Shown here: positions 1,640 to 32,000 of the stretch, one piece after another
Numbering within the stretch: the first letter of the stretch is position 1
How the letters are laid out: the number at the start of each line of letters is the position of its first letter
Assembly (NCBI GenBank): GCA_035935115.1
Contig: DASYXK010000021.1
Span: 268,174 to 300,173 of the forward strand
Reading direction: 5' to 3'
From: Nitrosopumilaceae archaeon
Lineage (GTDB): Archaea > Thermoproteota > Nitrososphaeria > Nitrososphaerales > Nitrosopumilaceae
DNA length: 32,000 bases
The notes under the pieces: generated by a model
The model's database searches: none
What the model was told of the DNA's origin: nothing
Seen by the model: only the letters and a program-made list of their open reading frames with translations
Translations under genes and position numbers: made by a program

Positions 1640-2467
1640 TTGCACATACGTGCAAGAAAAGCGCTTGATAATTTTTTAGCTGAAGATATTGGGAAAGGAG
1701 ACATTACAAGTAATCTTTTACCAAGAAAAAAAATCACTGCAAGTATAATTTCAAGACAAGAAGGAATAGTGGCAGGAGTACAATATGTAAAGTACATCTT
1801 TGTCTCAAGAGGATGTAAAGTAAAAATTCTAAAAAAAGATGGTTCCAAAATCAAACCAAACCAGAAAATAATGATTGTCTCAGGTTTTGCCCATATCATA
1901 TTGTCATGTGAGAGAACTGCACTCAACTTATTATCAAGAATGAGTGGAATTGCAACTCAAACCAATCATCTTGTAAATAAAATAAGGAAGGCAAACCCAA
2001 AAGTAAAACTCTACTCCACAAGAAAAACAGCGCCTGGATTACGTTTGTTTGATAAAGACGCAGTAGAAATTGGCGGAGGTAACAGACACAGGATGTCACT
2101 TGATCAAATGATCATGATAAAGGATAATCATCTTGCAGTTTCTGATTCTGTTTTGGAGTTGGTTCAAAAAGCATGTAAAAAATACAGAATCGTTGAAGTC
2201 GAAGTCGAGGGCCTAAATGATGCAATTCTTGCTGCAAAAGCTGGAGCATCCATAATAATGCTAGATAATCGTTCACCAAATGAAATTTCAAAAATTGTTA
2301 ACGCTTTAAAAAAATTACACCTAAGGGACAAAATACGAATCGAAGCTTCAGGAGGCATTGATTCTGCCAACATTCAATCATATGCAAGGACTGGTGTTGA
2401 TATGATATCAGTTGGAAAAATTACTAGTTCAGCGCCAGGGCTAGATTTAAGCTTAGAAGTTAGTTGA
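1640..2467 (+). CDS. nadC: Nicotinate-nucleotide pyrophosphorylase (quinolinate phosphoribosyltransferase)
   Basis: The N-terminus LDNFLAEDIGKGDITS, plus TRKTAPGLR, GGGNRHRMSLDQMIMIKDNH and SGGI, matches NadC. It needs the TTG start at 1640, 1 nt after the spt4 stop, because no upstream in-frame ATG exists. Confidence 0.9.
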   Translation: MHIRARKALDNFLAEDIGKGDITSNLLPRKKITASIISRQEGIVAGVQYVKYIFVSRGCKVKILKKDGSKIKPNQKIMIVSGFAHIILSCERTALNLLSRMSGIATQTNHLVNKIRKANPKVKLYSTRKTAPGLRLFDKDAVEIGGGNRHRMSLDQMIMIKDNHLAVSDSVLELVQKACKKYRIVEVEVEGLNDAILAAKAGASIIMLDNRSPNEISKIVNALKKLHLRDKIRIEASGGIDSANIQSYARTGVDMISVGKITSSAPGLDLSLEVS

Positions 2468-3398
2468 TTGCAAGCATTCTTTCAATTGCAAGTTGTGCTT
2501 TTTGAGCAATATTTTTTGGAACCTTAACTTCATACTTTTCTTCTTTTAGGGAAGAATAGACTTTGTCAAGAGTTATCATCTTCATATATTTGCATACCGC
2601 ATTTTCGGAAATAGGGATGAACTCTTTATCGGGATTTTGTTTTCTCATTCTGTATAATATACCAGTCTCTGTTGCAACAACAAATTTCTTTGAAGACGAA
2701 TCCTTTGCATGATTCATCATTCCTTCTGTAGATAGAATTTGAACCTGTCTGTTTCCATAGTCCCCTGATGCAACATCATACATGACTGAAGAAGTACAGC
2801 TGCATTCTGGGTGTATTAGAAATTCAGCGTTGGCATATTGATTTAGTTTTTCTTGTACATCTTGTGATCTTATACCAGCATGTACATGACATTCTCCTGC
2901 CCAGATAAACATGTTATTTCTATTTGTCATCTTTGCAACATATGATCCTAGGAACATATCTGGCAAAAACAGAACTTCTTTATTTTCCGGAATTGATTTC
3001 ACAACATTTACTGCGTTTGATGACGTACAGCAATAATCAAGCTCAGATTTTACTTCGGCAGTTGTGTTCACATAACCTACAGTTATGGCTCCCGGATGTT
3101 CGCTTTTCCATTTTCGCAATTGATCTGCAGTTATAGTATCAGATAATGAACAGCCTGCAGCAAGATCTGGTATGAGCACTTTTTTGTCTGGACATGTAAT
3201 AGCAGCAGTTTCTGCCATAAAATGTACACCACAAAACAAAATTGTTTTTTGTGTTGTCTTTGCAGCTTGTCTTGATAATCCTAAAGAATCTCCTACGTAA
3301 TCTGCAATATCCTGTACCTCAGGAAGTTGATAGTTATGAGCCAAAATAAGAACGTCTTTTTCTTTTTTAAGCTTCAAGATTTCTGATTTTAAATTCAT
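2460..3398 (-). CDS. nadA: Quinolinate synthase A
   Basis: 312 aa with ILAHNYQLPEVQDIADYVGDSL, FCGVHFMAETA and HPEC motifs typical of NadA. The 3' end overlaps nadC by 8 nt (convergent). Confidence 0.95.
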   Translation of the reverse strand: MNLKSEILKLKKEKDVLILAHNYQLPEVQDIADYVGDSLGLSRQAAKTTQKTILFCGVHFMAETAAITCPDKKVLIPDLAAGCSLSDTITADQLRKWKSEHPGAITVGYVNTTAEVKSELDYCCTSSNAVNVVKSIPENKEVLFLPDMFLGSYVAKMTNRNNMFIWAGECHVHAGIRSQDVQEKLNQYANAEFLIHPECSCTSSVMYDVASGDYGNRQVQILSTEGMMNHAKDSSSKKFVVATETGILYRMRKQNPDKEFIPISENAVCKYMKMITLDKVYSSLKEEKYEVKVPKNIAQKAQLAIERMLAIN

Positions 3399-3492
3399 TT
3401 ATCCAAAATAAACTGGCGATTTTTATCATTTAAAGGATAAGGTCCATGACATATTTGAGGACGTGTTGCGATATGATGGCAATATTTGCCAT

Positions 3493-4326
3493 TTATGTTC
3501 CAATTCTAATATCATCTTGACAGACTGCCCTCAGGCACTCTATCGCAGACAAAATTGCAAGTCTGCTTGTTTTTGGGTTATTAGGACTTGGTACATTTTC
3601 TACCTTGATTGAGAACTTGCCAAATTTACCTTGAGCTACTATCTCATGAGTGTTTTTGTCAGTATTTGGGTCTGCAATCATTCTTACTTTTGTGTTTAAG
3701 CTTCCAAGTCCAGCCAAGCTAAGAAGAGCTGCCACGTTAATGTTAGCAGGAAAAAGTCGTACAGCTTCTTGTGCTGTACCTTCAAAAATTATCGTAGAAT
3801 CTTTAATATTTTCAATATCAAGTTTTGAAGTTTCAAAGAATTTTGCTCCTTTTAATGATCTTGGACTTTTTGTCGTAACCAATGTAATCGATTCTAATTC
3901 ATCTTTTACAGAACGTATACCATCTAGACCCAAAATTGCTCCAGATGGAAGATAAATTGATCTTTTGAAATCTTTGCAACCTTCAACTATAATATCAAAA
4001 ATGGATTCGTCTAAAAGTGCGCCAACACTCATAATCATCAAATCTTTTCTGTTTTGCAGTATACCGAGTGCGTTATCCCTAACTGCATCTTGGGATGCCG
4101 CTTCTACAATGATATCAGTTGGTGCAGCAGCAAGCAAGCCTACGTTTTCAGTGATCTCAGGTTTATCCTTTAGTTTTGTTACTAGTAATTTTGAGGCATC
4201 TTTAGAAAAATCGAAAACATGAGTTAGTTTGGCTGGAATCTTTCCTGAGTCAATTGCCAAGGCAATTTCAGTACCAATTGCACCACACCCTAAAAGTCCT
4301 ATTCTTTTCAAGATATTGAATGTCAT
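3493..4326 (-). CDS. nadX: L-aspartate dehydrogenase
   Basis: Rossmann N-terminus IGLLGCGAIGTEIA, about 277 aa, with the C-terminal NPKTSRLAILSAI typical of the NadX family. Lies upstream of nadA on the same strand. Confidence 0.85.
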   Translation of the reverse strand: MTFNILKRIGLLGCGAIGTEIALAIDSGKIPAKLTHVFDFSKDASKLLVTKLKDKPEITENVGLLAAAPTDIIVEAASQDAVRDNALGILQNRKDLMIMSVGALLDESIFDIIVEGCKDFKRSIYLPSGAILGLDGIRSVKDELESITLVTTKSPRSLKGAKFFETSKLDIENIKDSTIIFEGTAQEAVRLFPANINVAALLSLAGLGSLNTKVRMIADPNTDKNTHEIVAQGKFGKFSIKVENVPSPNNPKTSRLAILSAIECLRAVCQDDIRIGT

Positions 4327-7126: not shown

Positions 7127-7972
7127 GTGCTTATGCTAAATACTGTCTATATTGATGCATTAAAAAAACGTGAGGCGACGCTTTCTATTTTAAAAGGAGA
7201 AAAATTTGATCAGATCATAGAGGAAGCCAAGCACAATTGGATAGATTACATGCCACAGAAGCAGGATTGTGAAATTGCCGGAATAGATAGTAGCTACAAC
7301 AGCACAAAATTTCAAGGGCTAGAACTTTGGGTAGTTACGGCAGTAGCTATAAAATCAGATAGTACCGTGATTTCAGAATTTCATAATCATGGTCTAGGTA
7401 CACCGTCACCTGAACTTGAGACACAGGCCAGTAAAATGGAAATAGATGCCTGTACCACATCTGTAGATAAAGCAGATGTAGTGATATTAGATGGTTCATT
7501 ATATTCTCAGTTTCTAACCAGACAATCCGCCCTTAGTTCCATGATTACAACAGCCATTAAAAAGAGAAACAATGTAGTATTCATATCAAAAACTTCTTCG
7601 GCTAGAAAACAATTTGAAAAATTTGGTTCTTTGGCAGGAGATATTTTTTACTATAATCACGCCATAAAGAAGGCAGGTTTTAGTAAAATTTTTGTTGACA
7701 AGGAATTAGGACCAGGCAAAGTTATTTCATCAACATATGCAAGGTTAAGTGAGTCTACGCCATTGATAAAAATTGAATTATTTGGATCTGATCATGATGA
7801 AACAGAAGTGAAATCACTTTTAGATAGATTGTGTAAAAATAGTGTTTCTGGATATCCGTACGCCTTAAAGCTTGCACACAACAAATGCAAGATAACGCAT
7901 ACAGATCTTGCACGACTTGTTAGTCTATATGGGCTAGGAAATGAAATTGGATCAAGGGAGGTACTAGGATGA
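7127..7972 (+). CDS. nurA: NurA 5'-3' nuclease
   Basis: EIAGIDSSYN (catalytic Asp region), VVILDGSLY and the gene context (first gene of the herA-mre11-rad50 cluster). The track start 7127 is GTG. ATG at 7133 (MLNTVY) sits about 25 nt downstream of a TATA-like cattttat and may be the real, leaderless start. Confidence 0.85.
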   Translation: MLMLNTVYIDALKKREATLSILKGEKFDQIIEEAKHNWIDYMPQKQDCEIAGIDSSYNSTKFQGLELWVVTAVAIKSDSTVISEFHNHGLGTPSPELETQASKMEIDACTTSVDKADVVILDGSLYSQFLTRQSALSSMITTAIKKRNNVVFISKTSSARKQFEKFGSLAGDIFYYNHAIKKAGFSKIFVDKELGPGKVISSTYARLSESTPLIKIELFGSDHDETEVKSLLDRLCKNSVSGYPYALKLAHNKCKITHTDLARLVSLYGLGNEIGSREVLG

Positions 7973-9489
7973 CAATCGGAGTTGTGATAGGAGAATCAAA
8001 ACCAACCGAGGTTACCGCACAATCATCTAAACCACTTGCTGTAGGAGAATATGTCATCATTGATTCACAAAATGGAAAGCTACTCGGATTAGTAGAAAGA
8101 TCAATTGTTTCAAGTGATGCACTCACAGATGTACGAAACTTTGACGAAGCTATAGAAAGCAAAGAGGTGGCATCGCTTAATTCTCGAGATAAAAGCTATA
8201 AAGTAAAAATAGGAATTCTTGGATTTTTAGACAAGTTACAAAAAGGACAAACTGTTTTGCCTGCAATTCCTCCATTACCAGGATCTTCAATACTTGATGC
8301 CACTGAAGAGGATTTGGAAATAATATTTGCCCCAAAGGAAAACGAATGGATTAGAATAGGATCTCTTCTTAGAAATTCAGATACTGAAGCCAAAGTAAAC
8401 CTGAACAAAATTGTCTCAAGACACATAGGCATACTTGCTATGACAGGCATGGGAAAAAGTAATCTGGTATCGCTCATCGCTAAGCAGATAGCAACACTTC
8501 AAGGAACACTAATAATTTTTGATTATCACAATGATTATGAAAATCTGAATCTGCCAAAAATCAACATAATGACAGCTAAAATAAATCCAAGATTATTACA
8601 AGCAGACAAGCTTGCTGAAGTAATAGAGATTAGGGAAAATGCAGACAAGCAACAAAGAGCATTGCGTGAAGCCTTTACTGATTCAGTCAAGCAAGCAAAA
8701 GATTTCTGGGCAGCATTAGAAGACAGTGTTTCATCGTTTGGGCATACGACAAAAGGATACGCGGATAGTGCAAGTCGAGTTCTTGACAAGATTGATGATG
8801 CCAAACATAGATTTTCTGATATTTTAGATCCGGATTGTGGAGATCCTGTTGATTTGATAAAAGAGGGCAGAGTCAACGTACTAAGTGTGGCTGAACTAAG
8901 TGAAAGGCAGGCAAATGCAGGTTTAGCATATTATTTGCAAGAGTTGCTAACAGATAGAAAAGACGCGTGCTGGGCAAAGAGAGGAAAAGAATCTTCAAGA
9001 AAGAATAATAAATTTTCTGCCCCTATTTTTGTAATAATTGAAGAAGCGCATGTTTTTATTCCAAAAGGAGAGCACACTGACACAAAATACTGGGCATCCA
9101 AAGTTGCAAGAGAGGGGAGAAAGTTTGGAATTGGACTTGGAATCGTATCCCAAAGACCTCGAAACATTGATCCAAATGTATTAAGCCAGATGGGTTCTCT
9201 TGCCATAATGAAAATCGTACAAGATGATGATCAACAACAAATTGCCTCAGCTGCAGAATCACTCAGCAAGGATCTGCTTTCTCAGTTGCCATCTTTGAAC
9301 ATAGGTGACGCTGTTCTCATAGGACAATGGGTCAATCTACCAGCAATAGTACACATTGATGAAGTAAAAGGAAAGACTGTGGGTTCCGATCTAAATGCAG
9401 TATCAGAATGGTCAGAATCTACAAAGTTCAAAGAAATTGGCATGGAATCAACCCGAGGGCTAATCCAAAAAGATCTATTGATGGACTAA
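7969..9489 (+). CDS. herA: HerA hexameric DNA helicase/translocase
   Basis: N-terminal HAS-barrel-like GEYVIIDSQNGKLLGLV, Walker A GILAMTGMGKSN, Walker B VFVIIEEAH and GIGLGIVSQRP. The ATGA overlap with the nurA stop indicates translational coupling. Confidence 0.9.
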   Translation: MTIGVVIGESKPTEVTAQSSKPLAVGEYVIIDSQNGKLLGLVERSIVSSDALTDVRNFDEAIESKEVASLNSRDKSYKVKIGILGFLDKLQKGQTVLPAIPPLPGSSILDATEEDLEIIFAPKENEWIRIGSLLRNSDTEAKVNLNKIVSRHIGILAMTGMGKSNLVSLIAKQIATLQGTLIIFDYHNDYENLNLPKINIMTAKINPRLLQADKLAEVIEIRENADKQQRALREAFTDSVKQAKDFWAALEDSVSSFGHTTKGYADSASRVLDKIDDAKHRFSDILDPDCGDPVDLIKEGRVNVLSVAELSERQANAGLAYYLQELLTDRKDACWAKRGKESSRKNNKFSAPIFVIIEEAHVFIPKGEHTDTKYWASKVAREGRKFGIGLGIVSQRPRNIDPNVLSQMGSLAIMKIVQDDDQQQIASAAESLSKDLLSQLPSLNIGDAVLIGQWVNLPAIVHIDEVKGKTVGSDLNAVSEWSESTKFKEIGMESTRGLIQKDLLMD

Positions 9490-10634
9490 TGATTTTCTCC
9501 CATATCTCAGACACACATTTAGGGTTTGTACAATATCATTCAGAGGAAAGAGAAGAGGACGTATATTCTGTATTTAACCAAGCAATTGACACCTCAATAA
9601 ATGATCATGTAGATTTTGTAATTTTTGCAGGAGACATATTTCATGTACCAACTCCCAGTGGAAAGGCAATCTTGGTTTTAGCAAATGCACTAAAGCGCTT
9701 AAAACAAAACAATATTGATTCTTTTTTCATTCTTGGCGAGCATGACATCAGTAGAATACGTGCAACACCTATACCGTTTGTTTACCATAATTTGGAATTT
9801 TCCAAATATATTGGAAATGGAAAACCATTCCAATACAAAGACATCATGATTTTAGGATACGACAAACGAAGAAAAAACGAAATCCATGCCTTTGAGCAAG
9901 ATTTTGCAAAGGCAGACATAGAAGCAAAGAATCACACTGGTCACAAAATTCTTGTATTACATCAAGGAATTACAGAGATCAACAAGTTTGCAGGAGAATT
10001 AAATTCTACAGATCTTCCAAAGAACTTTACATACTATGCCATGGGGCATCTTCATGAGAGAGAATTAAAAAAATTCAACCATTTAGGCGGACCTTTAGCG
10101 TATCCAGGTTCTATAGAACTTACCTCAAGTGAAGGAATTAAGGAAACACAAAAAGGATTTTACGAAGTAGACATCTCGTCATCTGAAGCAAAACCAAATT
10201 GGATAAAACTTGACATCAGACCTCAATATTCAGTTAGAACTAGTTTTGACAACCTTGCACAAGAAGTAAACAACTTGTCAGAAAAAATACAATCATTTTC
10301 AAGAAAGCCAATAGTTGAGGTAAAAATTCATGGTGACAACATAGAGACGGATCTTGTCCAATCGCAAATTGCAAGACTATTTCCTCTTACACTACGATGT
10401 TTATGGAAAACAATAATGCCAGAAGAAAGTGAAGGTTCAGTGTTTATCAATAGACCTGCAAAAATTGATGATGAAATGTTAAAGCTTGCAAAAGATATCC
10501 TAAATTCTGAAAGTCTAGCAAATTTTGCAATAAATGATCTACTTCCGTTTCTCTCAAAAAACCAGGTTGGAGAAGCAAATCATTTGGTAATTGAAAATTT
10601 TAATCAATTCAAAAAGGGTGTGAAAAAATGTTAA
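9489..10634 (+). CDS. mre11: Mre11 DNA double-strand break repair nuclease
   Basis: Phosphoesterase motifs in order: ISDTHLG, AGDIFH, GEHD, LHQG, GHLH. I prefer ATG 9489 (MIFSHISDTHLG), which overlaps the herA stop as TAATG, over the longer track ORF starting at 9408 inside herA. Confidence 0.9.
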   Translation: MIFSHISDTHLGFVQYHSEEREEDVYSVFNQAIDTSINDHVDFVIFAGDIFHVPTPSGKAILVLANALKRLKQNNIDSFFILGEHDISRIRATPIPFVYHNLEFSKYIGNGKPFQYKDIMILGYDKRRKNEIHAFEQDFAKADIEAKNHTGHKILVLHQGITEINKFAGELNSTDLPKNFTYYAMGHLHERELKKFNHLGGPLAYPGSIELTSSEGIKETQKGFYEVDISSSEAKPNWIKLDIRPQYSVRTSFDNLAQEVNNLSEKIQSFSRKPIVEVKIHGDNIETDLVQSQIARLFPLTLRCLWKTIMPEESEGSVFINRPAKIDDEMLKLAKDILNSESLANFAINDLLPFLSKNQVGEANHLVIENFNQFKKGVKKC

Positions 10635-12706
10635 ACGAAATAGAGCTTGGGAATTTTCTTTCCCATTCTAATACAAAACTAGGATTTAACAAGGGTGTAA
10701 CAGTTTTTGTTGGTCAGAACGGGACAGGCAAATCAAGTATTATAGACGGAATTACATTCGCACTATTTGGACAGCATACTAGAAATTCTAACAAGGGACT
10801 GGTTCGTCGAGGTGCAAACCAGGCGTATGCCAAGGTAAATTTCTCCATTTTAGACAGACAGTTTGAGGCAATACGCAAAATTGATTCAAAAGGAACAGTT
10901 TCTGCTCAATTTTTTGAGAAAAAAGACGGCAGTCTCATACCACTTGCATCGGGGGAAAGAAAGCAGTTTGGCGAATCCATGACAAAGACAATTGAATCAA
11001 TCATAGGAATGGATTTTGATAAGCTCAAGGTAGCATCAATTGTTCAACAAGGCGAACTTAATTCCATAATTAATGCAGACCCAAAAAAATTCAAGGAATT
11101 AGTAAATGCCATTATTGGAATTGATAAACTCGATACCGCGTTTGAAGTAATGAAAGATGTTATAGAAAATTTTCGTGTTTCTATAAAAGAGAGATTAGAA
11201 TATGATGACAGAGATATTGAAAGCCTAAAAATTAAAATTGATTTTCTTACAAAAGAGATCAATCTAGCAAAGCCGCAAAGAGAAGAGATGATCACAAGGA
11301 AGAAAATACAAGAAAGCGAACTTGTTCAACTACAAAATAAGATCGAATCAGAATCTGCAAAAGAAATAAAGATAAAAGAGCTAGAAACAAGAAAGTCAGA
11401 ACTTGTTCAGTATGTAAAAACTGCAATCACTTCTCTTAAAAAAGAAATACACGAAAAAGAGAAAAAATTTTCTGATTGTGATGGATGTTTTACCCACATA
11501 TCATCCAAAAAAGAAATGGAATCACAACTAGTAAAAGTAGAAAACGAATTAGAATCGTCAAGAAGAAAAATTCAAGAATTTGTAGAAAAAATAGGCAAAC
11601 TTGGTGGCCAGGAGGAGCTTGCAGGAAAGCTGAAATTACAAGACGGAAAGTGCCCAGTCTGTGATTCCAAAGTCGAAACTCTCAATCCTCTTTTTGAGGA
11701 GGAACACATTCGTAATGAGATTACAAAAATACGAAATAACATAGATTCACTAACAAAGATAGAAAAAGAGAATCGTGAGAAAAAACATGTTTTTGAGCAA
11801 AATCTACAAAAAGCTCTCAGTGCAGAAAAAACGCTTTCCATACATGGAATAAAACAGCCACAAGAGTTAGTACACCTAAAAGAGGAAATTTCCATGTTAA
11901 AAAATAATATCAAGAAAATTCCATCGGAGTTAAATTCGTCAGAAAATATGATACATTTGGCAATAGATCCCCATTCTGAATCAATATGTAAAACAATACT
12001 TTTACTTCAAAAAGAAACAGGCGGATTTGATCTAACAGAATTTAAAAATCTAAAAATTTCTTTTGATCAAAAACGCAAGTCACTTAGTATGACAGAACAA
12101 GAAATCGGTGCAATAACACAGAAGATACAGACGGCAGAAGAGCAACAAGAAAAAATATCTCAAGCATTAGAAGAACTTGTTTTAGTAAAAAAATATGTTG
12201 CACAATTAGAAGAAATACGAAGTCAGATTTTTAATAGAGACGGACCTGTTGCAATGAGTTTACGATCATGGGCGCTAAACTTGATATCACAAAAGGCATC
12301 AGAATATTTGTCTGCATTTAACGTAAAGATCCAAAGGGTTTTGTTGCAGGAAAAAGCTCGCGATGTAGGAATTTCATGTTATTCTGGAAATACAGTTTTG
12401 GAACTTGATTCTCTAAGCGGTGGTGAAAAAGTCAGCATAGCATTAGCTCTGCGCCTTGGAATGGCACACATTCTAGGTTCCTCTAATCTTAACTTCATCA
12501 TACTTGATGAGCCAACTACACATTTAGATGAGGAACGTAGAAAATCACTTGTAGGAATTCTCTCTAATGCATTTGAAGCTAATCTAGCTGCAATATCTCA
12601 GTTTATTATAATTACACATGATTCTGAAATATTTGAAAATTCTAATGTTGACACAATATACAATTTTGAGGCAACGTCTGAAGGAACAAAAGTAACAGCG
12701 CTCTAA
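10628..12706 (+). CDS. rad50: Rad50 SMC-like ATPase
   Basis: Walker A GQNGTGKSS, a long Glu/Lys-rich coiled coil, zinc hook CPVC (11651-11662), signature LSGGE and Walker B IILDEPT. The start overlaps the mre11 stop by 7 nt. Confidence 0.9.
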   Translation: MLNEIELGNFLSHSNTKLGFNKGVTVFVGQNGTGKSSIIDGITFALFGQHTRNSNKGLVRRGANQAYAKVNFSILDRQFEAIRKIDSKGTVSAQFFEKKDGSLIPLASGERKQFGESMTKTIESIIGMDFDKLKVASIVQQGELNSIINADPKKFKELVNAIIGIDKLDTAFEVMKDVIENFRVSIKERLEYDDRDIESLKIKIDFLTKEINLAKPQREEMITRKKIQESELVQLQNKIESESAKEIKIKELETRKSELVQYVKTAITSLKKEIHEKEKKFSDCDGCFTHISSKKEMESQLVKVENELESSRRKIQEFVEKIGKLGGQEELAGKLKLQDGKCPVCDSKVETLNPLFEEEHIRNEITKIRNNIDSLTKIEKENREKKHVFEQNLQKALSAEKTLSIHGIKQPQELVHLKEEISMLKNNIKKIPSELNSSENMIHLAIDPHSESICKTILLLQKETGGFDLTEFKNLKISFDQKRKSLSMTEQEIGAITQKIQTAEEQQEKISQALEELVLVKKYVAQLEEIRSQIFNRDGPVAMSLRSWALNLISQKASEYLSAFNVKIQRVLLQEKARDVGISCYSGNTVLELDSLSGGEKVSIALALRLGMAHILGSSNLNFIILDEPTTHLDEERRKSLVGILSNAFEANLAAISQFIIITHDSEIFENSNVDTIYNFEATSEGTKVTAL

Positions 12707-13197
12707 CCACCAGTTAGCTTGGCAAATCTCTCATTTTTGCTTAATTTTTCCATAAATTGCAAATTAGAAAGAGCAACAACTGCAGATTCTCGTACTGACT
12801 CGCTTGAATCTTCAAGAGCTCTTTGTAGTGTTTCTTTTGCTTCCTGAGAGCCTATAACCCCTAGCGCAATTGCAGCTTCATGTCTTACAAAGAAGCTAGG
12901 ATCGTTTTTGACTGCGTCTTCAAGTGGCTTTATTCCGCTACGATAACACATCTGACCAAGTGAAAATGCTGCTTCATGTCTTACAAGCTCATTTGAATCA
13001 TTTTTTAAAACATTGGCAACATGTGAAACCATTTCCTCTCCTCCAAAATCTACCAGAATGCATACAGCTCTTGTCCTTATGACAAAGTCTTTGTGATCTA
13101 AAAGACTCATAAAATACTCTTTGTCTTTATTTTCATACATTTCCTCCATTTCAGACAATAGTTCTAAACGTGTACCAGGAATAACTTCCATGCACAC
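12703..13197 (-). CDS. HEAT-repeat (PBS-lyase/E-Z type) protein, deoxyhypusine-hydroxylase-like half-size form
   Basis: 164 aa of tandem HEAT-like repeats: VIRTRAVCILVDFG / LVRHEAAFSLGQM / FVRHEAAIALGVIG / SVRESAVVALSNL. Two His-Glu pairs (H74-E75, H106-E107) lie 32 aa apart. See findings. Confidence 0.8.
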   Translation of the reverse strand: MCMEVIPGTRLELLSEMEEMYENKDKEYFMSLLDHKDFVIRTRAVCILVDFGGEEMVSHVANVLKNDSNELVRHEAAFSLGQMCYRSGIKPLEDAVKNDPSFFVRHEAAIALGVIGSQEAKETLQRALEDSSESVRESAVVALSNLQFMEKLSKNERFAKLTGG

Positions 13198-13230
13198 AAT
13201 TTTATAAGCGAATATTTATTCATTGATAAC

Positions 13231-15039: not shown

Positions 15040-16131
15040 ATGATAAAAAGATCAGATATTCAAAAAATTGTCAACGAATATTCTGATCTTACCATAGGTA
15101 CACTTGGCAGTCATTCTGCACTTGAAATAATGGATGGTGCAAAAGACGAAAATTTGCAAACCGTAGTAGTGTGTCAAAAAGGACGCGAGATACCATACAA
15201 AAGATTTTCCAGACTTGCAGACGAGATAATAATCCTAAACAAATTCAAGGATATGCTTTCTCCAAAAATTCAAGCTCGCCTGCGTGCTTCAAATACAGTA
15301 ATTGTACCACACAGAGCACTTACTGCTTATCTTGGATATCTGGGTGTTGAAAATAATTTCAAAGTACCAATATTTGGAAACAGAGCATTGTTTCAGGCAG
15401 AAGAACGATCACACCAAAAGAATCAATATTATCTGCTTGAAAAAGCAAAGATAAAACATCCAAAACTTTTCAAAAACCCAAAGGACATAGACAGGCCTGT
15501 TATTATTAAGGTACAGGAGAAATCTCGTAAACTTGAGAGAGCTTTCTTTAATGTTTCATCATATTCAGAATACAAAGACAAGTCAGAAATCAAGATTGGA
15601 CGTGGACTTGTTTCAAGAGACGCATTAAAAAGTGCAAGTATTGAGGAACATGTGATAGGGACATACTTTAATTTCAATTACTTTTACACTCCAATTTCAG
15701 ATGAAGTTGACTTTCTAGGCATAGAGCGAAGATTGCAGACAAACATACATGATTTTACTTCACTTCCTGCTAGGCAGCAACTTGAGACAAACATAGAATT
15801 ACAAAATATAGAAGTAGGTCACACTCCCGCAAGCATAAGAGAATCACTTTTGGAAAAAGTTTTGTCTGCAGGAGATAAATTTGTCAATGCCGTCAAAAAA
15901 GAATACTCGCCTGGAATCATTGGTCCATTTTCATTGCAAAGTGTAATCACAAGAGATTTGGAAATTGTGGTGTATGATGTATCACTACGAGTTCCTGGAA
16001 ATCCAATTCTTGCCACAACTAGTCCGTACACAAAATACAAGTACGGAACTACATTTGGAGTTGGAAGAAGGATTGCAATGGAGCTAAAACGAGCTCAGCA
16101 AGAAGGAAGATTAGATGAGATAGTTACCTAG
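15040..16131 (+). CDS. purP: 5-formaminoimidazole-4-carboxamide ribonucleotide (FAICAR) synthetase PurP
   Basis: N-terminus IGTLGSHSALEIMDGAKDENL and ATP-grasp-like architecture, 363 aa. This is an archaea-specific purine biosynthesis enzyme family. Confidence 0.9.
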   Translation: MIKRSDIQKIVNEYSDLTIGTLGSHSALEIMDGAKDENLQTVVVCQKGREIPYKRFSRLADEIIILNKFKDMLSPKIQARLRASNTVIVPHRALTAYLGYLGVENNFKVPIFGNRALFQAEERSHQKNQYYLLEKAKIKHPKLFKNPKDIDRPVIIKVQEKSRKLERAFFNVSSYSEYKDKSEIKIGRGLVSRDALKSASIEEHVIGTYFNFNYFYTPISDEVDFLGIERRLQTNIHDFTSLPARQQLETNIELQNIEVGHTPASIRESLLEKVLSAGDKFVNAVKKEYSPGIIGPFSLQSVITRDLEIVVYDVSLRVPGNPILATTSPYTKYKYGTTFGVGRRIAMELKRAQQEGRLDEIVT

Positions 16132-16640: not shown

Positions 16641-17480
16641 TTGGAAAAACAGGCTACGATGCAGCGTTCTTATCGCGCCTTGATAATCGTGGGTTTTGTA
16701 GCAATAGCTGTTTCATTTTTAGTTTATGCAAGAAATGATTCAACTTCAGTCACACCAGCAGCAATTCCTGCACTACAAAGACTTGCCATAGCTACGTACA
16801 TTGTTCTTTTTATGGCATTTGGTGCAATAGGTTGGGGATTGTATAGATTCTACAAGATCAAGATATCAGATGGCGATAATTCTATTTCTTCAATTATTGC
16901 AAATACAATAAATAACAAACGAGCAAAGCAAATCTTTGTTGCAAGTGCCATAGGCTATGGAATATTTTTTGCGTTTGCTTCTGGAATAATTCTATACAAA
17001 CCAGAACTAAACGCTACAGATTATGGATTTCCAGTTCCGCATGCTGAAATCGCATCATGCTGTGATCTTCCAGGATACATGCCAATGATTCTAGCTTTTT
17101 TCACAGAGCATGTTGGTTTACAGATAATTCCTTTGAATTTTGTTTTGCTAGTAGTGGTTTCTTTTCTGGTAGGTCTTAACTTTACCATATCTTCAAAAAC
17201 ATTTACCATGTCAAGAAAAGGAAAGAGTCTTGGAACTTTTGGAGCCATAACTGGTCTCTTTGTTGGATGTCCAACATGTGCAGGCACCGCTTTTACAATG
17301 TTTTTTGGCCTAGGAGCTGGGGCTACTGGAGTCACACTATTTTTGACAAGCTATGAGGCACAGCTTCAAACTATTTTTATTGCCATCTCAATTCCAATCT
17401 TGCTTCTTACTCCTTTTATCATGACAAGAAACAACAGAAGATCCAGTTTAGGTAGTTGTGCAGTAGATTCTAAACAATGA
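16641..17480 (+). CDS. Polytopic membrane protein with CC and CPxC motifs (function unknown)
   Basis: 279 aa with several hydrophobic segments. Vicinal Cys140-Cys141 (17058-17063) and Cys210-Pro-Thr-Cys213 (17268-17279). The track start is TTG; ATG at 16659 is an alternative. Confidence 0.6.
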   Translation: MEKQATMQRSYRALIIVGFVAIAVSFLVYARNDSTSVTPAAIPALQRLAIATYIVLFMAFGAIGWGLYRFYKIKISDGDNSISSIIANTINNKRAKQIFVASAIGYGIFFAFASGIILYKPELNATDYGFPVPHAEIASCCDLPGYMPMILAFFTEHVGLQIIPLNFVLLVVVSFLVGLNFTISSKTFTMSRKGKSLGTFGAITGLFVGCPTCAGTAFTMFFGLGAGATGVTLFLTSYEAQLQTIFIAISIPILLLTPFIMTRNNRRSSLGSCAVDSKQ

Positions 17481-21197: not shown

Positions 21198-21587
21198 TTA
21201 AGGCGTTGTTCCCCAGCCACGTGCAGTCAGTGCTTGTGCAATCTGAGAGCTTACACATGCAGGCGAACTATCTTCTTTCTTGATAATTAGAGCAAAACCT
21301 TGACCACATTGTACGCTTTTTGCAGAAACACCTGATTTGAGTTGTTGCAACGGAGATAGTACTTTATGTATGTTTGTCATAGTCATATTTCCAGTCATAT
21401 TTCCAGTCATATTTCCAGTCATATTTTTACTAGCAGTAACAGTTGTATTCATTTTCACATTAGCACCCATGTTAGCATTGTCAGCATATGCGTTATTCAA
21501 AAAGCCAATCACGCCAAGAGCAGTTACTACAGATAGACCTGCAAATAAAATCATATAAGACAAAAATCGAAGATTATTGACCATCAA
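21198..21587 (-). CDS. Secreted/anchored protein with an NxT-rich (NMTG)n repeat and a C-terminal two-Cys domain
   Basis: N-terminal signal/anchor LSYMILFAGLSVVTALGVIGF, then NTTVTASKNMTGNMTGNMTGNMTMTN. The C-terminal domain is SVQCGQGFALIIKKEDSSPACVSSQIAQALTARGWG. Confidence 0.7.
   Translation of the reverse strand: MMVNNLRFLSYMILFAGLSVVTALGVIGFLNNAYADNANMGANVKMNTTVTASKNMTGNMTGNMTGNMTMTNIHKVLSPLQQLKSGVSAKSVQCGQGFALIIKKEDSSPACVSSQIAQALTARGWGTTP
21376..21426. repeat. 12-bp tandem repeat (gtcatatttcca), about 4 copies, in-frame inside CDS 21198..21587
   Basis: Three perfect units lie at 21382-21393, 21394-21405 and 21406-21417. They are flanked by partial units 21376-21381 and 21418-21426. 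On the minus strand they encode NMTG repeats. Confidence 0.9.
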
Positions 21588-24080: not shown

Positions 24081-24638
24081 ATGCCTCAAACTAAGCCAAT
24101 GGTAAGTATTGAAAATGTCGTGGCTTCAGCATCTGTTGATCAAAGACTTGATCTCAATGAAATCACAAAAAAATTCCCTGATACAGAATATCACCCCGAA
24201 CAATTTCCAGGACTAGTATTTAGAATAAAATTGCCAAAGACTGCAACGCTAATCTTTAGTTCTGGAAAGATGGTTTGCACTGGAGCAAAATCTACAGAAC
24301 AGTCAATTAGTGCAGTAAGAAGCGTGGTACAAAAACTTCGAAAGGGCAAGATAAAAGTAAAAAATGATCCTGTCATAACAATTCAAAATATCGTAGCCTC
24401 TGTAAACCTTAATGGAAAAGTTCATCTAGAAAGAGCTGCAAGAAGCTTGCCGCGAAGCATGTATGAGCCAGAACAGTTTCCAGGACTAATACATAGAATG
24501 CTTGATCCGAAAACGGTTATTCTGATTTTTGCATCAGGAAAGCTTGTTTGTACGGGCGCAAAAAAGGAATCTGATGTATACCGGTCAGTAAACAATCTGC
24601 ATACGATGCTTGAAGAAAAAGAATTAATGATATACTAG
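24081..24638 (+). CDS. tbp: TATA-box binding protein
   Basis: 185 aa with two direct TBP repeats: IENVVASASV...YHPEQFPGLVFRI...LIFSSGKMVCTGAKS and IQNIVASVNL...YEPEQFPGLIHRM...LIFASGKLVCTGAKK. Confidence 0.95.
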   Translation: MPQTKPMVSIENVVASASVDQRLDLNEITKKFPDTEYHPEQFPGLVFRIKLPKTATLIFSSGKMVCTGAKSTEQSISAVRSVVQKLRKGKIKVKNDPVITIQNIVASVNLNGKVHLERAARSLPRSMYEPEQFPGLIHRMLDPKTVILIFASGKLVCTGAKKESDVYRSVNNLHTMLEEKELMIY

Positions 24639-27900: not shown

Positions 27901-28416
27901 CTACTTCATTTTCACATTGATTATCAAAGTGTTCTCAGTAAAATCCAAGGTAGCTTGTCGCCCTAAATTTTCTAACATCCGTTCATGCTGTGTTTTATAG
28001 AAGAATGACCATTTTTTTCCCATATTGTGGTGAATTATGAACTTGATCATTCCTTTCTCACTGGATTCTAAATAATCAATACCAGATTTTCTCAGTCTGT
28101 TCCTTAGGATTGAAAAAAATCCATCAATAGTATTATCACCTGTCATCATTAGCCTGACATCCTTAGTGGAATCTGCAGTCTTAATTGCTATCTTGTAAAG
28201 TGTTTTTTCATCTAATTCATTCATTAATTCCTTAAGTACGTCGGCAAGAACTACAACCCATCCTGCTTTACTTGCGGTACTATCCCATTGGAGATATTCT
28301 GTAAGTATGTGGTTAACCAGCATGTTGAGGTTTAATCCCTCAATTTTTGCTTTTACCCTCAATTTATCCAAACTTGTACTTGGTAATCTAATACTGATGC
28401 TTTTGTCTAAAATCAT
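27901..28416 (-). CDS. Ribbon-helix-helix (CopG/Arc-like) N-terminal domain protein with an unknown C-terminal domain (171 aa)
   Basis: The N-terminus KSISIRLPSTSLDKLRVKAKIEGLNLNMLVNHILTEYL has the beta-strand/helix/helix pattern of RHH DNA-binding domains. The remaining 120 aa or so are unassigned. Confidence 0.55.
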   Translation of the reverse strand: MILDKSISIRLPSTSLDKLRVKAKIEGLNLNMLVNHILTEYLQWDSTASKAGWVVVLADVLKELMNELDEKTLYKIAIKTADSTKDVRLMMTGDNTIDGFFSILRNRLRKSGIDYLESSEKGMIKFIIHHNMGKKWSFFYKTQHERMLENLGRQATLDFTENTLIINVKMK

Positions 28417-29157: not shown

Positions 29158-29943
29158 GTGTTCGAGAAAAAATGTCCAATTTGTAATAACAAATTCAAAG
29201 GATCAGAGGGGCAAAAATGTACAGTTCATAAAATTGGACTATGGGTACTTATCTGCAAACAATGCTATGAGACATACGCTCCAACAAAGGAAGAAAAAAA
29301 TATTGAGTTTAATGCGATATGCAATGAATGTGATTCCACCATGCAAGACATTGAGGTAATTGATAAAGGAACAAAAATTATCTTCTTTTGCTCACAGTGC
29401 AAAAAGAATTGGAGCTCAAATGAAATTAAAATTACTAGCAGAAATCAGTTTGATCTGTCAGATGTGACTGTTATCACAGACAAGACAAAATCTGAAATTA
29501 GTTTGTACTACGTTGAAGCACAGATGGTTGATACTAAGGTGTTTGTGAGTAAAAAAAAAGATGAAGATTTTAAACCAATAGAAACAAAGGAGAAAAAGAA
29601 ACCCATTCTTATGAATCGCATACAACTTGAAATTGAACTAGCTAAAGGGGTTGCGAATATGACCACGTGGAATAAGAAATCTACAGATTATGATGTTCAT
29701 GATGGTTTTGGAGTTGGGTATTCCCTTACTATTGCTTTTTCTGAACCTGACAATGTGTTAATGAATTTGCTATTACCTATAATAAGAAATTATGGATTTG
29801 GTTCTATACCAGGTCGGCAATGGAGCCATTGTCATTTAGATAATCAAAATCCAACTAATGAAAAAGCAGAAAAAATTCTGACTGAAGTTACTAACTTAAT
29901 AGCAAACAAACTTCAAAAATCTGTTATTAGATATCTGCCTTAA
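29158..29943 (+). CDS. Double zinc-ribbon protein with an unknown C-terminal domain (261 aa)
   Basis: A GTG start is required because the first knuckle begins at residue 6. Cys pairs: CPIC...CKQC, then CNEC...CSQC. The C-terminal 130 aa or so carry no recognisable motif. Confidence 0.6.
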   Translation: MFEKKCPICNNKFKGSEGQKCTVHKIGLWVLICKQCYETYAPTKEEKNIEFNAICNECDSTMQDIEVIDKGTKIIFFCSQCKKNWSSNEIKITSRNQFDLSDVTVITDKTKSEISLYYVEAQMVDTKVFVSKKKDEDFKPIETKEKKKPILMNRIQLEIELAKGVANMTTWNKKSTDYDVHDGFGVGYSLTIAFSEPDNVLMNLLLPIIRNYGFGSIPGRQWSHCHLDNQNPTNEKAEKILTEVTNLIANKLQKSVIRYLP

Positions 29944-30000: not shown

Positions 30001-32000
30001 TTACTCGCTGTCGATAAACTCGTCTGCTGTTGGCGGATCCGGACTTAGGCCCTTTCTCTTTCTGATTTCTGCCAATATGGTAGGCAAGACAGAGTTTGGA
30101 ACAGGTGTCCAAGCTTTAAAGTGCGTGTTCCACATTGCTTTTCCTGCAGTTTGTCCACGCATCACTTCAGAAAGATCAAAAGTTTCAGATGCCGGCATTT
30201 CTCCAGTCAAAATATGTACAACTCCTTTTTGTTCCATGCTTAGTACCTTGCCTCTTTTACCAGATATTACTCCCGCAACGTTTCCAATCATTTCCTGTGG
30301 AACTCGAACTTCAATTCCAAGTGTTGGTTCTAGTAATACGGGATTTGCCAAAAGCATTGCACCCATACAAGCACGTCTTGAAGCAGGACCAAGTTGGGAT
30401 AGACCTCTGTGAGCTGGGTCCTCGTGTGGTACAAAGTGATGGAATGTAAATTTGCATCCTCTAACTTGTTCTCTTGCAAGAGGACCTTCTTTCATGGTAT
30501 CCTCAAAGCCAGACAAGATAGAGTCTGTTGATTCTTGAACAAACTGGACACCTTTGGTACCGTCTACAAAGACGTTTCCTCTTGGATCAAATCGCATAAC
30601 ACGTTTTGCCTCGTCTCTTTCCCAACCAGTGTTCCTTAAAATTTCTGCAACTTCCTTTGTGTCCTTGTATTCGTTTAGTGTTCCGTTTCTAATTAGTTCA
30701 GCAACTTTTTCATCTAGTGGTTCTACTTTTAAAAATATCTTGTTGTGTCTGTTTGGCGACTTTGCCATTATAGGACCTGCTGCTGTCCTAATTGTTTCAC
30801 GATAGTTGATCAGTGGTTGTGATGTTACAACTTGTACTCCAGCGTCTGCAATAAGTGATGTTGCAATCTCAAGGTGCAATACACCCATTCCTGCAATTAC
30901 GGTTTCTCCGCTTTCCTCGTTAATTTTCACAACAAGGTTGGGGTCTTCAATAGTAATACGACGTAAAGCTTCAACGAGTTTTGGAAGATCCTTTGGATGT
31001 TTTGGTTCTACAGCAATTTGTACAACAGGCTCCGAAACATATTGAATTCCTTCAAAGGTATGAATACCAGCTACACTTGAAAGTGTTTGACCTGCTCTTG
31101 CATGTTCTAATCCTAAAAGTGCAGGAATGTTTCCTGCAGCAAGTTCACCTACCATTTCACGTTGGTTTCCCATGAAAAAGTTAACCGATTGTACTCTTCC
31201 TTCTCGTTTGGAATCTATAAGGTATATTCTGTCACCGTCTTTTATTTTACCAGAAAATAATCTGCCAATAGCTACAGGACCTGCAGCTGGATCCACTGTC
31301 ATGTTTACAATCATCATAACAGTTGGACCATTGTCATCACAATTCAAAAGTGCTTTACCTAAATCAGATTCTAAATCACCTTTCCAAATTTTTGGAATTC
31401 TGTATTTTTGTGCAACATCAGGTGATGGATGATGTTTTACAACCATTCCAAGTACAGCGTCATAGAGTGGTGCTTTTTCTGCAAGCGCTTTGATGTCACC
31501 GCCTTCAGAATATGCGGCATAGATGTCCTTGAATGAAATTCCTTTTTTCTTCATTACATCTGCGTTAAATCCCCACTTGTCCTTTGCAGAGCCAAATGAA
31601 ACGCTTCCATCTTGAATGCTAACCTTCCATTTTTCCTTGTATTCTGGTTCTGCGTAAATGTCAATTAATCTGTTAAAGTTTGTAATAATATCTACAAGCC
31701 ACTCTTGCATTTTTTCTGGAGGGAGTCTGAGTTCTTTTATGAGACGATCTATTTTATTGATGTAAAGCACCGGTCTGACTCTTTCTTCAAGAGCTTGTCT
31801 TGTCACGGTCTCTGTCTGAGTCATTATTCCTTCAACAGAGTCTGAAACTACTACCGCCCCATCAATTGCTCTAAGGCTACGGGTAACACGCCCAGTAAAG
31901 TCAATGTGTCCGGGAGTATCAATCATGTTGATTACATATTCCTGATCTCCCTGTTCATAAAGTAAAGTAACATTTGCTTGAACAATTGTCATCTGTCTGT
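30001..32000 (-). CDS. fusA: Translation elongation factor aEF-2 (partial; N-terminus beyond the window)
   Basis: G-domain DTPGHIDF and NKIDR. Domain IV tip HEDPAHRG contains the diphthamide-target His context. The reading frame stays open through 32000, so Met at 31992 is internal. All plus-strand ORFs 30077-31432 are antisense shadows. Confidence 0.95.
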   Translation of the reverse strand, partial: RQMTIVQANVTLLYEQGDQEYVINMIDTPGHIDFTGRVTRSLRAIDGAVVVSDSVEGIMTQTETVTRQALEERVRPVLYINKIDRLIKELRLPPEKMQEWLVDIITNFNRLIDIYAEPEYKEKWKVSIQDGSVSFGSAKDKWGFNADVMKKKGISFKDIYAAYSEGGDIKALAEKAPLYDAVLGMVVKHHPSPDVAQKYRIPKIWKGDLESDLGKALLNCDDNGPTVMMIVNMTVDPAAGPVAIGRLFSGKIKDGDRIYLIDSKREGRVQSVNFFMGNQREMVGELAAGNIPALLGLEHARAGQTLSSVAGIHTFEGIQYVSEPVVQIAVEPKHPKDLPKLVEALRRITIEDPNLVVKINEESGETVIAGMGVLHLEIATSLIADAGVQVVTSQPLINYRETIRTAAGPIMAKSPNRHNKIFLKVEPLDEKVAELIRNGTLNEYKDTKEVAEILRNTGWERDEAKRVMRFDPRGNVFVDGTKGVQFVQESTDSILSGFEDTMKEGPLAREQVRGCKFTFHHFVPHEDPAHRGLSQLGPASRRACMGAMLLANPVLLEPTLGIEVRVPQEMIGNVAGVISGKRGKVLSMEQKGVVHILTGEMPASETFDLSEVMRGQTAGKAMWNTHFKAWTPVPNSVLPTILAEIRKRKGLSPDPPTADEFIDSE

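Follow-up and report, generated by a model that had tools for sequence, protein, structure and literature searches.

A candidate single-lobe relative of deoxyhypusine hydroxylase encoded in Nitrosopumilaceae

The gene and its paired His-Glu repeats

The 32,000-nucleotide stretch analyzed here, which we call the window, comes from the genome of a Nitrosopumilaceae archaeon (GenBank assembly GCA_035935115.1, contig DASYXK010000021.1, positions 268,174 to 300,173), and it carries on its minus strand a gene for a small HEAT-repeat protein that is almost certainly a homolog of one lobe of deoxyhypusine hydroxylase (DOHH). The open reading frame (ORF) covers positions 12703–13197 and encodes 164 aa if read from a GTG at 13197. 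While this ORF is present as the initial annotation of the window described it, its start probably lies elsewhere. Nearly all of the 120 closest database proteins are 162 aa long and have the N-terminus MEVIP..., and because the closest homologs share this length and beginning, translation most likely begins at the ATG at 13191 and yields a product of 162 aa. Residues are numbered below in the 162-aa form, in which the two His-Glu pairs are H72/E73 and H104/E105 (H74/E75 and H106/E107 in the 164-aa form). The G+C content of the window is 35.8%, and the protein is up to 98% identical to its closest relatives, which belong to Nitrosopumilaceae and Nitrosotalea-like thaumarchaeal genomes.

A Pfam scan of the protein returns only HEAT_2 (E = 5e-24), HEAT, HEAT_PBS, and HEAT_EZ. 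An AlphaFold2 model of the monomer, built from a 27-sequence alignment, is all alpha-helical with about 4.5 HEAT repeats and has a predicted local distance difference test (pLDDT) score of 92.4. It consists of an N-terminal helix followed by four HEAT repeats, with the His-Glu pairs located near the starts of the helices at residues 68–81 and 100–113. These results bear out the earlier description of an all-HEAT protein of the E-Z/PBS type, and translation of the ORF reproduces all three motifs as originally quoted, with the two His-Glu pairs separated by exactly 32 residues. The curated libraries (Pfam, NCBIfam) returned no DOHH-specific model. In the NCBIfam scan the lyase models scored far below their cut-offs (NblB, 43.1 bits against 300; CpcF, 26 against 220; CpcE, 25.5 against 330), and a phycobilin lyase or NblB identity was rejected because these cut-offs are not reached.

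The His-Glu pairs are a constant feature of the family. All of the small homologs (150–200 aa) that we compared, drawn from Nitrosopumilales, Nitrososphaerales, Caldarchaeum/Aigarchaeota (Caldarchaeales), and 'archaeon HR01', contain exactly two RHE motifs at a spacing of exactly 32 (259/259). When 27 diverse homologs with identities down to 37% are aligned, R71, H72, E73, A74, L78, G79, and Q80 are invariant, as are V102, R103, H104, and E105 and, within the fourth repeat, V133 and S136. For the background we collected VRxxAAxALG-type repeats from 145 generic HEAT proteins of large size, which rank as the best matches to the window protein among 1.84 billion representatives. His-Glu is found at both variable positions in 6 of these 1,519 generic repeats (0.4%), and at least three of the six belong to one internally repetitive protein. 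The conserved His-Glu pairs exceed chance, since they occur in every family member and in only this small fraction of generic repeats. The initial annotation had named a lack of conservation among orthologs as part of what would count against it, and what is observed is invariance.

One generic HEAT protein of the background set, P0202 (1029 aa), has three consecutive near-identical repeats with WVRHEAAQALGEL at residues ~700–800, spaced 30–31 residues apart. It is the sole member of that set with adjacent His-Glu repeats, and it may represent another metal-binding HEAT array. The C-terminus of the family also follows a pattern, as it reads LTGG, MTGG, or KTGG in 189 of the 259 homologs (Nitrosopumilales, Caldarchaeales), with APRP in place of TGG in a 169-aa Nitrososphaerales group.

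Likeness to the lobes of eukaryotic DOHH

The window protein aligns by BLASTP with both lobes of human DOHH, for which we used a sequence identical to PDB chain 4d4z over residues 1–289. Residues 31–151 match DOHH 13–134 in the N-lobe (33% identity, E = 9e-15), and residues 31–143 match DOHH 164–277 in the C-lobe (37% identity, E = 1e-12). H72/E73 is aligned with human H56/E57 in the N-lobe and H207/E208 in the C-lobe, and H104/E105 with H89/E90 and H240/E241, respectively. The LGQ of the first motif repeat is aligned with human L62-G63-Q64. The C-lobe counterpart of the fourth repeat, SVRESAVVALSNL, is VVRESCEVALDMY, and its N-lobe counterpart is IEVAETCQLAVRRL.

Several of the matched residues are ones to which a function has been ascribed in the human enzyme. 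E73, E105, and G79 (of LGQ) are invariant and are aligned with human E57, E90, and G63 as well as with E208, E241, and G214. Binding of eIF5A(Dhp) reportedly requires the Glu in every His-Glu motif as well as Gly63/Gly214 of LGQ (Kang et al. 2007), and the three archaeal residues would presumably share the eIF5A-binding role of their human counterparts. H72 and H104 together with one Glu make up what we take to be the ligand set (His, His, Glu) of one iron per human lobe, with an extra Glu; Kim et al. 2006 and Han et al. 2015 reportedly assigned the DOHH iron ligands in detail.

Database searches single out DOHH among natural proteins. When the PDB is searched with the single sequence, DOHH is the best natural match (E = 7e-22), and when it is searched with a family profile, DOHH (4d4z) scores 139.6 bits (E = 5.6e-40) over two stretches, with the next natural proteins, YibA and Rpn2, at 45 bits. 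Only designed consensus alphaReps outscore DOHH in these sequence searches, which we attribute to their idealized repeats. When the family is compared with 20 eukaryotic DOHHs using hhalign, the His-Glu columns match, the probability is 99.8% (E = 1.4e-28), and 125 columns are aligned at 36% identity. In a Foldseek search of the PDB, no natural protein matches better than 4d4z, whose query-normalized template-modeling (TM) score of 0.74 is the highest among the matches listed.

We built separate hidden Markov models (HMMs) of the N-lobe and the C-lobe from 90 eukaryotic DOHHs. Scoring by lobe was preferred because a long generic protein can align over both lobes of a whole-protein HMM, which makes the scores impossible to compare. 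With the lobe HMMs we obtained 73.1 bits (N) and 75.5 bits (C) for the window protein and a median of about 70 for the family. For the 145 generic HEAT proteins, each represented by its best stretch, the median is 38 bits and the scores go no higher than 53 (N) or 62 (C), so that the family median is 8–17 bits higher than the best generic stretch. Because these scores set it apart from generic HEAT proteins, the family is, to judge by the lobe profiles, specifically DOHH-like and not just HEAT-like. The initial annotation had likened the local sequence context to that of a single DOHH lobe and had looked to a profile search to place the protein; the in-register BLASTP alignments to both lobes, the hhalign result, and the lobe HMMs all agree with that comparison. 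The case for homology to DOHH is strong, and homology itself is close to certain.

Fused relatives, distribution, and gene neighborhoods

A natural tandem form of the protein provides further insight. P0121, with 363 aa, contains two such units head to tail and four His-Glu motifs, and it shares 59% identity with the window protein. Both of its lobes are aligned with 4d4z in an AlphaFold2 model (304 columns, TM 0.78 when normalized to 4d4z), and all other PDB targets reach TM values of at most 0.61 with root-mean-square deviations above 9 Å. The gene lies on an 18-kb metagenomic contig (Logan SRR21363124_14; our loci L084/L085), where it is the last of a co-directional cluster that encodes deoxyhypusine synthase (DHS), an Orn/Arg decarboxylase, a CN hydrolase, an agmatine deiminase (PAD_porph), and P0121. 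The DHS matches human DHS with E = 1e-65, and the CN hydrolase is N-carbamoylputrescine-amidase-like. Divergent from this cluster is a gene for a 203-aa protein whose last 65 residues can be aligned to the aIF5A N-domain of M. jannaschii. The aligned part includes a hypusine loop, KAGKHGGPK, which corresponds to KPGKHGGAK in M. jannaschii. This operon is the strongest functional clue tying the family to the formation of hypusine. A metagenome scan for further tandem/DHS clusters returned only two short ordinary thaumarchaeal loci.

Other genes on the P0121 contig include a second short ORF, on the minus strand, that begins ...AKTGKQGHIK and is also hypusine-loop-like. Near the cluster are a TauD/GBBH-like hydroxylase (beyond the IF5A-like gene), HEAT proteins that bind cyclic nucleotide monophosphates (cNMP-binding), and a reductase/decarboxylase resembling those of non-ribosomal peptide synthetases (NRPS-like).

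With P0121 as the query, named eukaryotic DOHHs are retrieved at E ~1e-24, together with proteins of ~280 aa that have four His-Glu motifs at spacings of 32, 104–105, and 32. From these matches we conclude that predicted two-lobe DOHH-like proteins exist in DPANN-type archaea (Table 1). One of them, P0443, is labeled 'Nanoarchaeota archaeon', and one is encoded in a locus with PCNA and NOG1. We found no mention of these two-lobe proteins in the literature searched.

The relationship among the lobes was analyzed with a bootstrapped neighbor-joining tree of 55 lobes over 136 columns, which resolves three clades. The first contains the eukaryotic N- and C-lobes (95%), the second contains the DPANN N- and C-lobes, which are sisters to one another (100%), and the third contains the single-lobe Nitrososphaerota proteins together with both lobes of P0121 (95%). 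No bootstrap replicate unites N-lobes, or C-lobes, across clades. Because the N- and C-lobes cluster within clades and never across them, the tree, taken at face value, suggests that duplication and fusion of the lobe occurred independently at least three times. Concerted evolution of the lobes or an artefact of the distance method may also explain this pattern. Repeated fusion is what would be expected if the unfused form already acts as a symmetric dimer.

Single-lobe relatives of the window protein are numerous. When one genome for each GTDB species was scanned with a pattern, at least 582 stretches proved to encode a relative. The best 80 of the at least 582, which we examined, are all Nitrosopumilaceae-type or otherwise labeled Nitrososphaerota. 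Among the matches listed, the family is seen in Nitrososphaerota (Thaumarchaeota, Aigarchaeota) and in DPANN-type archaea. No homolog from Sulfolobales, Thermoproteales, Asgard archaea, halophiles, or methanogens is among those same matches, which is absence of evidence only. Many of the orthologs are named 'deoxyhypusine monooxygenase' in JGI/IMG, a label that presumably stems from automatic orthology assignment, and are called 'HEAT repeat domain-containing protein' by NCBI.

The surroundings of the single-lobe gene differ between lineages. No DHS or aIF5A gene lies within the 32-kb window, and no DHS/IF5A link was found at the Nitrosopumilaceae, Nitrososphaerales, or other single-lobe loci compared. 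In Caldarchaeum, DHS is ~7 kb away and the divergent neighbor is ThiS/Urm1-like. In an HR01-like aigarchaeon the gene directly follows NifU_N (IscU-type) on the same strand, with a ferritin-family gene two genes away, an iron-related neighborhood that is not seen in other lineages. The divergent neighbor in one marine group is a weak match to AhpC-TSA (peroxiredoxin-family).

On one side of the HEAT gene, the window contains a complete NurA-HerA-Mre11-Rad50 operon for DNA-end resection, in which gene ends overlap. Its last gene, rad50, runs toward the HEAT gene, and the two convergent genes share 4 bp at their ends. Adjacency to rad50 is found in 74 of 80 Nitrosopumilaceae-type genomes and is absent in Aigarchaeota and Nitrososphaerales. 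A functional link to this operon was rejected, as the genes are convergent and their adjacency reflects synteny within Nitrosopumilaceae. On the other side, a short A+T-rich spacer presumably holds the promoters of both the HEAT gene and a divergent gene. This 152-aa neighbor, which is without a Pfam match, adjoins the HEAT gene in 43 of 83 compared loci, mostly in Nitrosotalea-like genomes. Next to this neighbor is an ORF of 98 aa that resembles a small membrane protein and is present in 5 loci only. Elsewhere the window contains housekeeping genes, namely QRPTase, NadA, and aspartate dehydrogenase (NAD synthesis), a PurP-type FAICAR synthetase, TBP, and elongation factor 2, along with several ORFs that have no family match.

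Table 1 Coordinates of the gene, its motifs, and neighboring or related features (window positions unless a locus is named)
Feature	Positions	Strand	Remark
Putative single-lobe DOHH-like HEAT gene	12703–13191	-	162 aa; stop TAG 12703–12705; start from orthologs
First putative metal-motif repeat, LVRHEAAFSLGQM	12949–12987	-	His-Glu at 12973–12978; checked by translation
Second putative metal-motif repeat, FVRHEAAIALGVIG	12850–12891	-	His-Glu at 12877–12882; checked by translation
Fourth repeat, SVRESAVVALSNL	12760–12798	-	checked by translation
C-terminal tail ...(L/M/K)TGG	12706–12714	-	conserved in homologs
A+T-rich spacer, 39 bp	13192–13230		between the HEAT gene and the divergent 152-aa gene; from sequence only
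Divergent neighbor, 152 aa	13231–13689	+	
Small ORF, 98 aa	13699–13995	-	
NurA-HerA-Mre11-Rad50 operon	7127–12706	+	
Housekeeping genes	1640–4326, 15040–16131, 24081–24638, 30001–31992		
ORFs without family match	16641–17480, 21198–21587, 27901–28416, 29158–29943		
NifU_N and HEAT gene, HR01-like aigarchaeon	L081 2700–4698		
ThiS/Urm1-like neighbor, Caldarchaeum	L089 7629–7916		
P0121 cluster	L084 2857–9092		
Second hypusine-loop-like ORF, P0121 contig	L084 9222–9635	-	
Two-lobe DPANN-type protein P0427	L086 8001–8849		same set: P0436, P0438, P0443, P0445, P0448, P0450, P0483

A proposed homodimeric hydroxylase, its alternatives, and known systems

On balance, and with modest confidence, we favor the proposal that the window protein is a single-lobe homolog of DOHH whose homodimer rebuilds the di-iron center and hydroxylates deoxyhypusine on aIF5A. 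Each chain would correspond to one lobe of four HEAT repeats, in which the first helix of both repeat 3 and repeat 4 would carry DOHH-type ligands. Two chains would pair head to head as a C2 homodimer, and this dimer would recreate the four-His-Glu, oxygen-activating di-iron center of the two-lobe eukaryotic enzyme. It could then convert the deoxyhypusine side chain on aIF5A to hypusine. Dimerization, iron binding, O2 chemistry, and aIF5A as the substrate are elements that we infer; a homodimer is proposed because of the natural tandem fusion in P0121 and the apparently repeated, independent fusions of the lobe. The hosts are mostly aerobes with DHS, which we count in favor of a DOHH role, and ammonia-oxidizing archaea have been described as possessing DHS, arginine decarboxylase, and agmatinase (PMC8573960).

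A number of observations weigh against this proposal. The dimerization, metal content, and activity of the protein rest on inference, and no report on the state of aIF5A (hypusine or deoxyhypusine) in Nitrososphaerota was found in the literature searched. The fold match is non-discriminating by itself, as designed alphaReps match as well or better and come first by E-value, and where eukaryotic DOHH has Met three residues ahead of the second His, the family has Phe or Ile. No gene partner is conserved within Nitrososphaerota: in Nitrosopumilaceae there is only the convergent rad50, and elsewhere contexts vary. The operon evidence comes from one metagenomic contig. Seven proteins of that contig were looked up in a collection of 15 billion proteins and are all singletons, and its IF5A-like protein is atypical, as it has the N-domain only and a long acidic N-terminal extension. 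The model of P0121 had one sequence as its input and is of moderate confidence (pLDDT 72.7), and the 2015 structure 4d4z was possibly in the AlphaFold2 training data. Lastly, the family cannot be the missing enzyme for all archaea, because no homolog from Sulfolobales, where hypusine was shown, is among the matches listed, and the Sulfolobus case is left unexplained by it.

The principal alternative is that the protein is a DOHH-related metalloprotein with another job, which we consider unlikely. It could be a mononuclear non-heme iron monomer in which His-His-Glu forms a 2-His-1-carboxylate triad, or a di-iron oxygenase whose substrate is not aIF5A but, for instance, a free polyamine or a different protein. 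A single chain offers exactly His, His, and Glu with a spare Glu, there is no conserved operon link to DHS or aIF5A in Nitrososphaerota, and the polyamine enzymes and TauD-type hydroxylase clustered at L084 make small-molecule chemistry conceivable. However, the conserved likeness to DOHH is not limited to the ligands, as the LGQ and ALGxIG contexts are shared too; these contexts reportedly include residues required for eIF5A binding (Kang et al. 2007). The tandem form is predicted to take the two-lobe shape of DOHH and its gene adjoins an IF5A-like gene with an intact hypusine loop, and three independent lobe fusions, as the tree suggests, would favor a two-lobe functional unit.

That the protein is a non-catalytic metal-binding or iron-handling protein (a sensor, chaperone, or store) reusing the DOHH-type His-Glu site would fit the succession of NifU_N and the gene, with ferritin nearby, in one aigarchaeal lineage, as well as the weak AhpC-TSA neighbor in the marine group. 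We regard this as improbable: such contexts are lineage-specific and equally compatible with an iron enzyme, and the DHS/IF5A operon of the tandem relative is left unexplained. We give least credence, and very little, to a generic scaffold or adaptor of the HEAT/PBS-lyase type that resembles DOHH only because both follow the same repeat consensus. It is true that Pfam and NCBIfam yield generic HEAT models only, plus sub-threshold NblB, CpcE, and CpcF, that designed alphaReps beat DOHH in both sequence and fold searches, and that 34,443 representative proteins match at E<=0.001, in a search of the 1.84 billion representatives dominated by giant multi-repeat HEAT proteins whose scores are summed over many repeats. 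Nevertheless, such a scaffold does not account for invariant His-Glu pairs at fixed spacing or for the gap that the DOHH lobe HMMs place between the family and the generic maximum, and the lyase-model scores are far under their cut-offs. These archaea are also not known to possess phycobilisomes.

The literature to at least 2018 describes archaea as having DHS with no known DOHH, and some as containing hypusine (PMC5178350, PMC6105217, PMC3306375). Searches that paired hypusine or DOHH with thaumarchaeal, aigarchaeal, DPANN, or Asgard names returned nothing relevant. The initial statement that no archaeal DOHH has been assigned agrees with the three papers cited, but it needs qualification in light of the JGI/IMG names and the two-lobe homologs in DPANN-type archaea. 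The suggestion that the protein is a candidate for the missing archaeal enzyme likewise holds in a narrower form, as a testable candidate in Nitrososphaerota and not for the archaea as a whole.

A broader hypothesis, which we hold less firmly than the homodimeric hydroxylase and would stop short of calling probable, is that the single-lobe form is the ancestral homodimeric DOHH, active on aIF5A in Nitrososphaerota, and that two-lobe enzymes arose from such half-proteins by at least three duplication-fusions. If so, aerobic Nitrososphaerota would make full hypusine, and eukaryotes, DPANN-type archaea, and the lineage of P0121 would each have undergone a separate fusion. The operon of P0121 would then be a self-contained, spermidine-independent route to hypusine in five steps: arginine decarboxylase would produce agmatine, DHS would transfer the agmatine, agmatine deiminase and N-carbamoylputrescine amidase would trim it, and the DOHH-like protein would carry out the hydroxylation. 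The target in that organism would be a minimal protein consisting, as to IF5A, of the N-domain only.

The homodimeric hydroxylase proposal also has practical value. The family offers a concrete, easily expressed candidate of 18 kDa in the cultivable Nitrosopumilus, Nitrosotalea, and Nitrososphaera, and therefore both the presence of hypusine and the enzyme responsible are directly testable. It could serve as a minimal model of a HEAT-repeat di-iron oxygenase in which a homodimer replaces a pseudo-symmetric monomer. It is also a plausible evolutionary precursor of eukaryotic DOHH, with fusion apparently repeated in several lineages.

Among known systems, generic HEAT_PBS proteins (MTH187, E. 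coli YibA, the CpcE/CpcF/NblB lyases, and alphaReps) share the repeat type and fold of the window protein; in contrast to it, they are without a conserved His-Glu pair at the variable positions and have far lower DOHH-lobe HMM scores. The DPANN-type two-lobe proteins resemble it in being archaeal, in the spacing of 32 within a lobe, and in a first motif of VRHEAAF(x)LG(E/D). They differ in that their lobes are fused and that the second motif of each lobe is VKHE or V(I/L)HE, where the window protein has VRHE. P0121, whose lobes nest in the single-lobe clade, differs in being fused and in having an N-terminal hydrophobic extension.

The closest characterized comparison is with human DOHH (PDB 4d4z/4d50) and yeast Lia1 (EC 1.14.99.29), which have the same all-HEAT fold of the E-Z/PBS type. 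A eukaryotic lobe and the archaeal protein both present two His-Glu motifs on consecutive repeats, within shared flanks that read VRHEAAxxLGQ, then VRHEAAxALGxIG, then VRES...AL. On average, a single-lobe protein is ~30% identical to a eukaryotic lobe, and the N- and C-lobes of the eukaryotic enzyme are 36% identical to each other. The differences lie mainly in architecture, as the archaeal chain is one lobe of 162 aa with two His-Glu motifs at a spacing of 32, whereas eukaryotic DOHH consists of two fused lobes in ~300 aa, with four His-Glu motifs spaced by 33 within a lobe. The archaeal protein also has a conserved N-terminal helix (EME...YF) and the ...TGG tail, both of which eukaryotic DOHH is without. 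DOHH is defined by an eight-repeat symmetrical dyad with four His-Glu motifs in one chain, and the window protein has one lobe and two motifs. Because two fused lobes per chain are absent, we classify it as a variant of the DOHH architecture and not as a canonical member.

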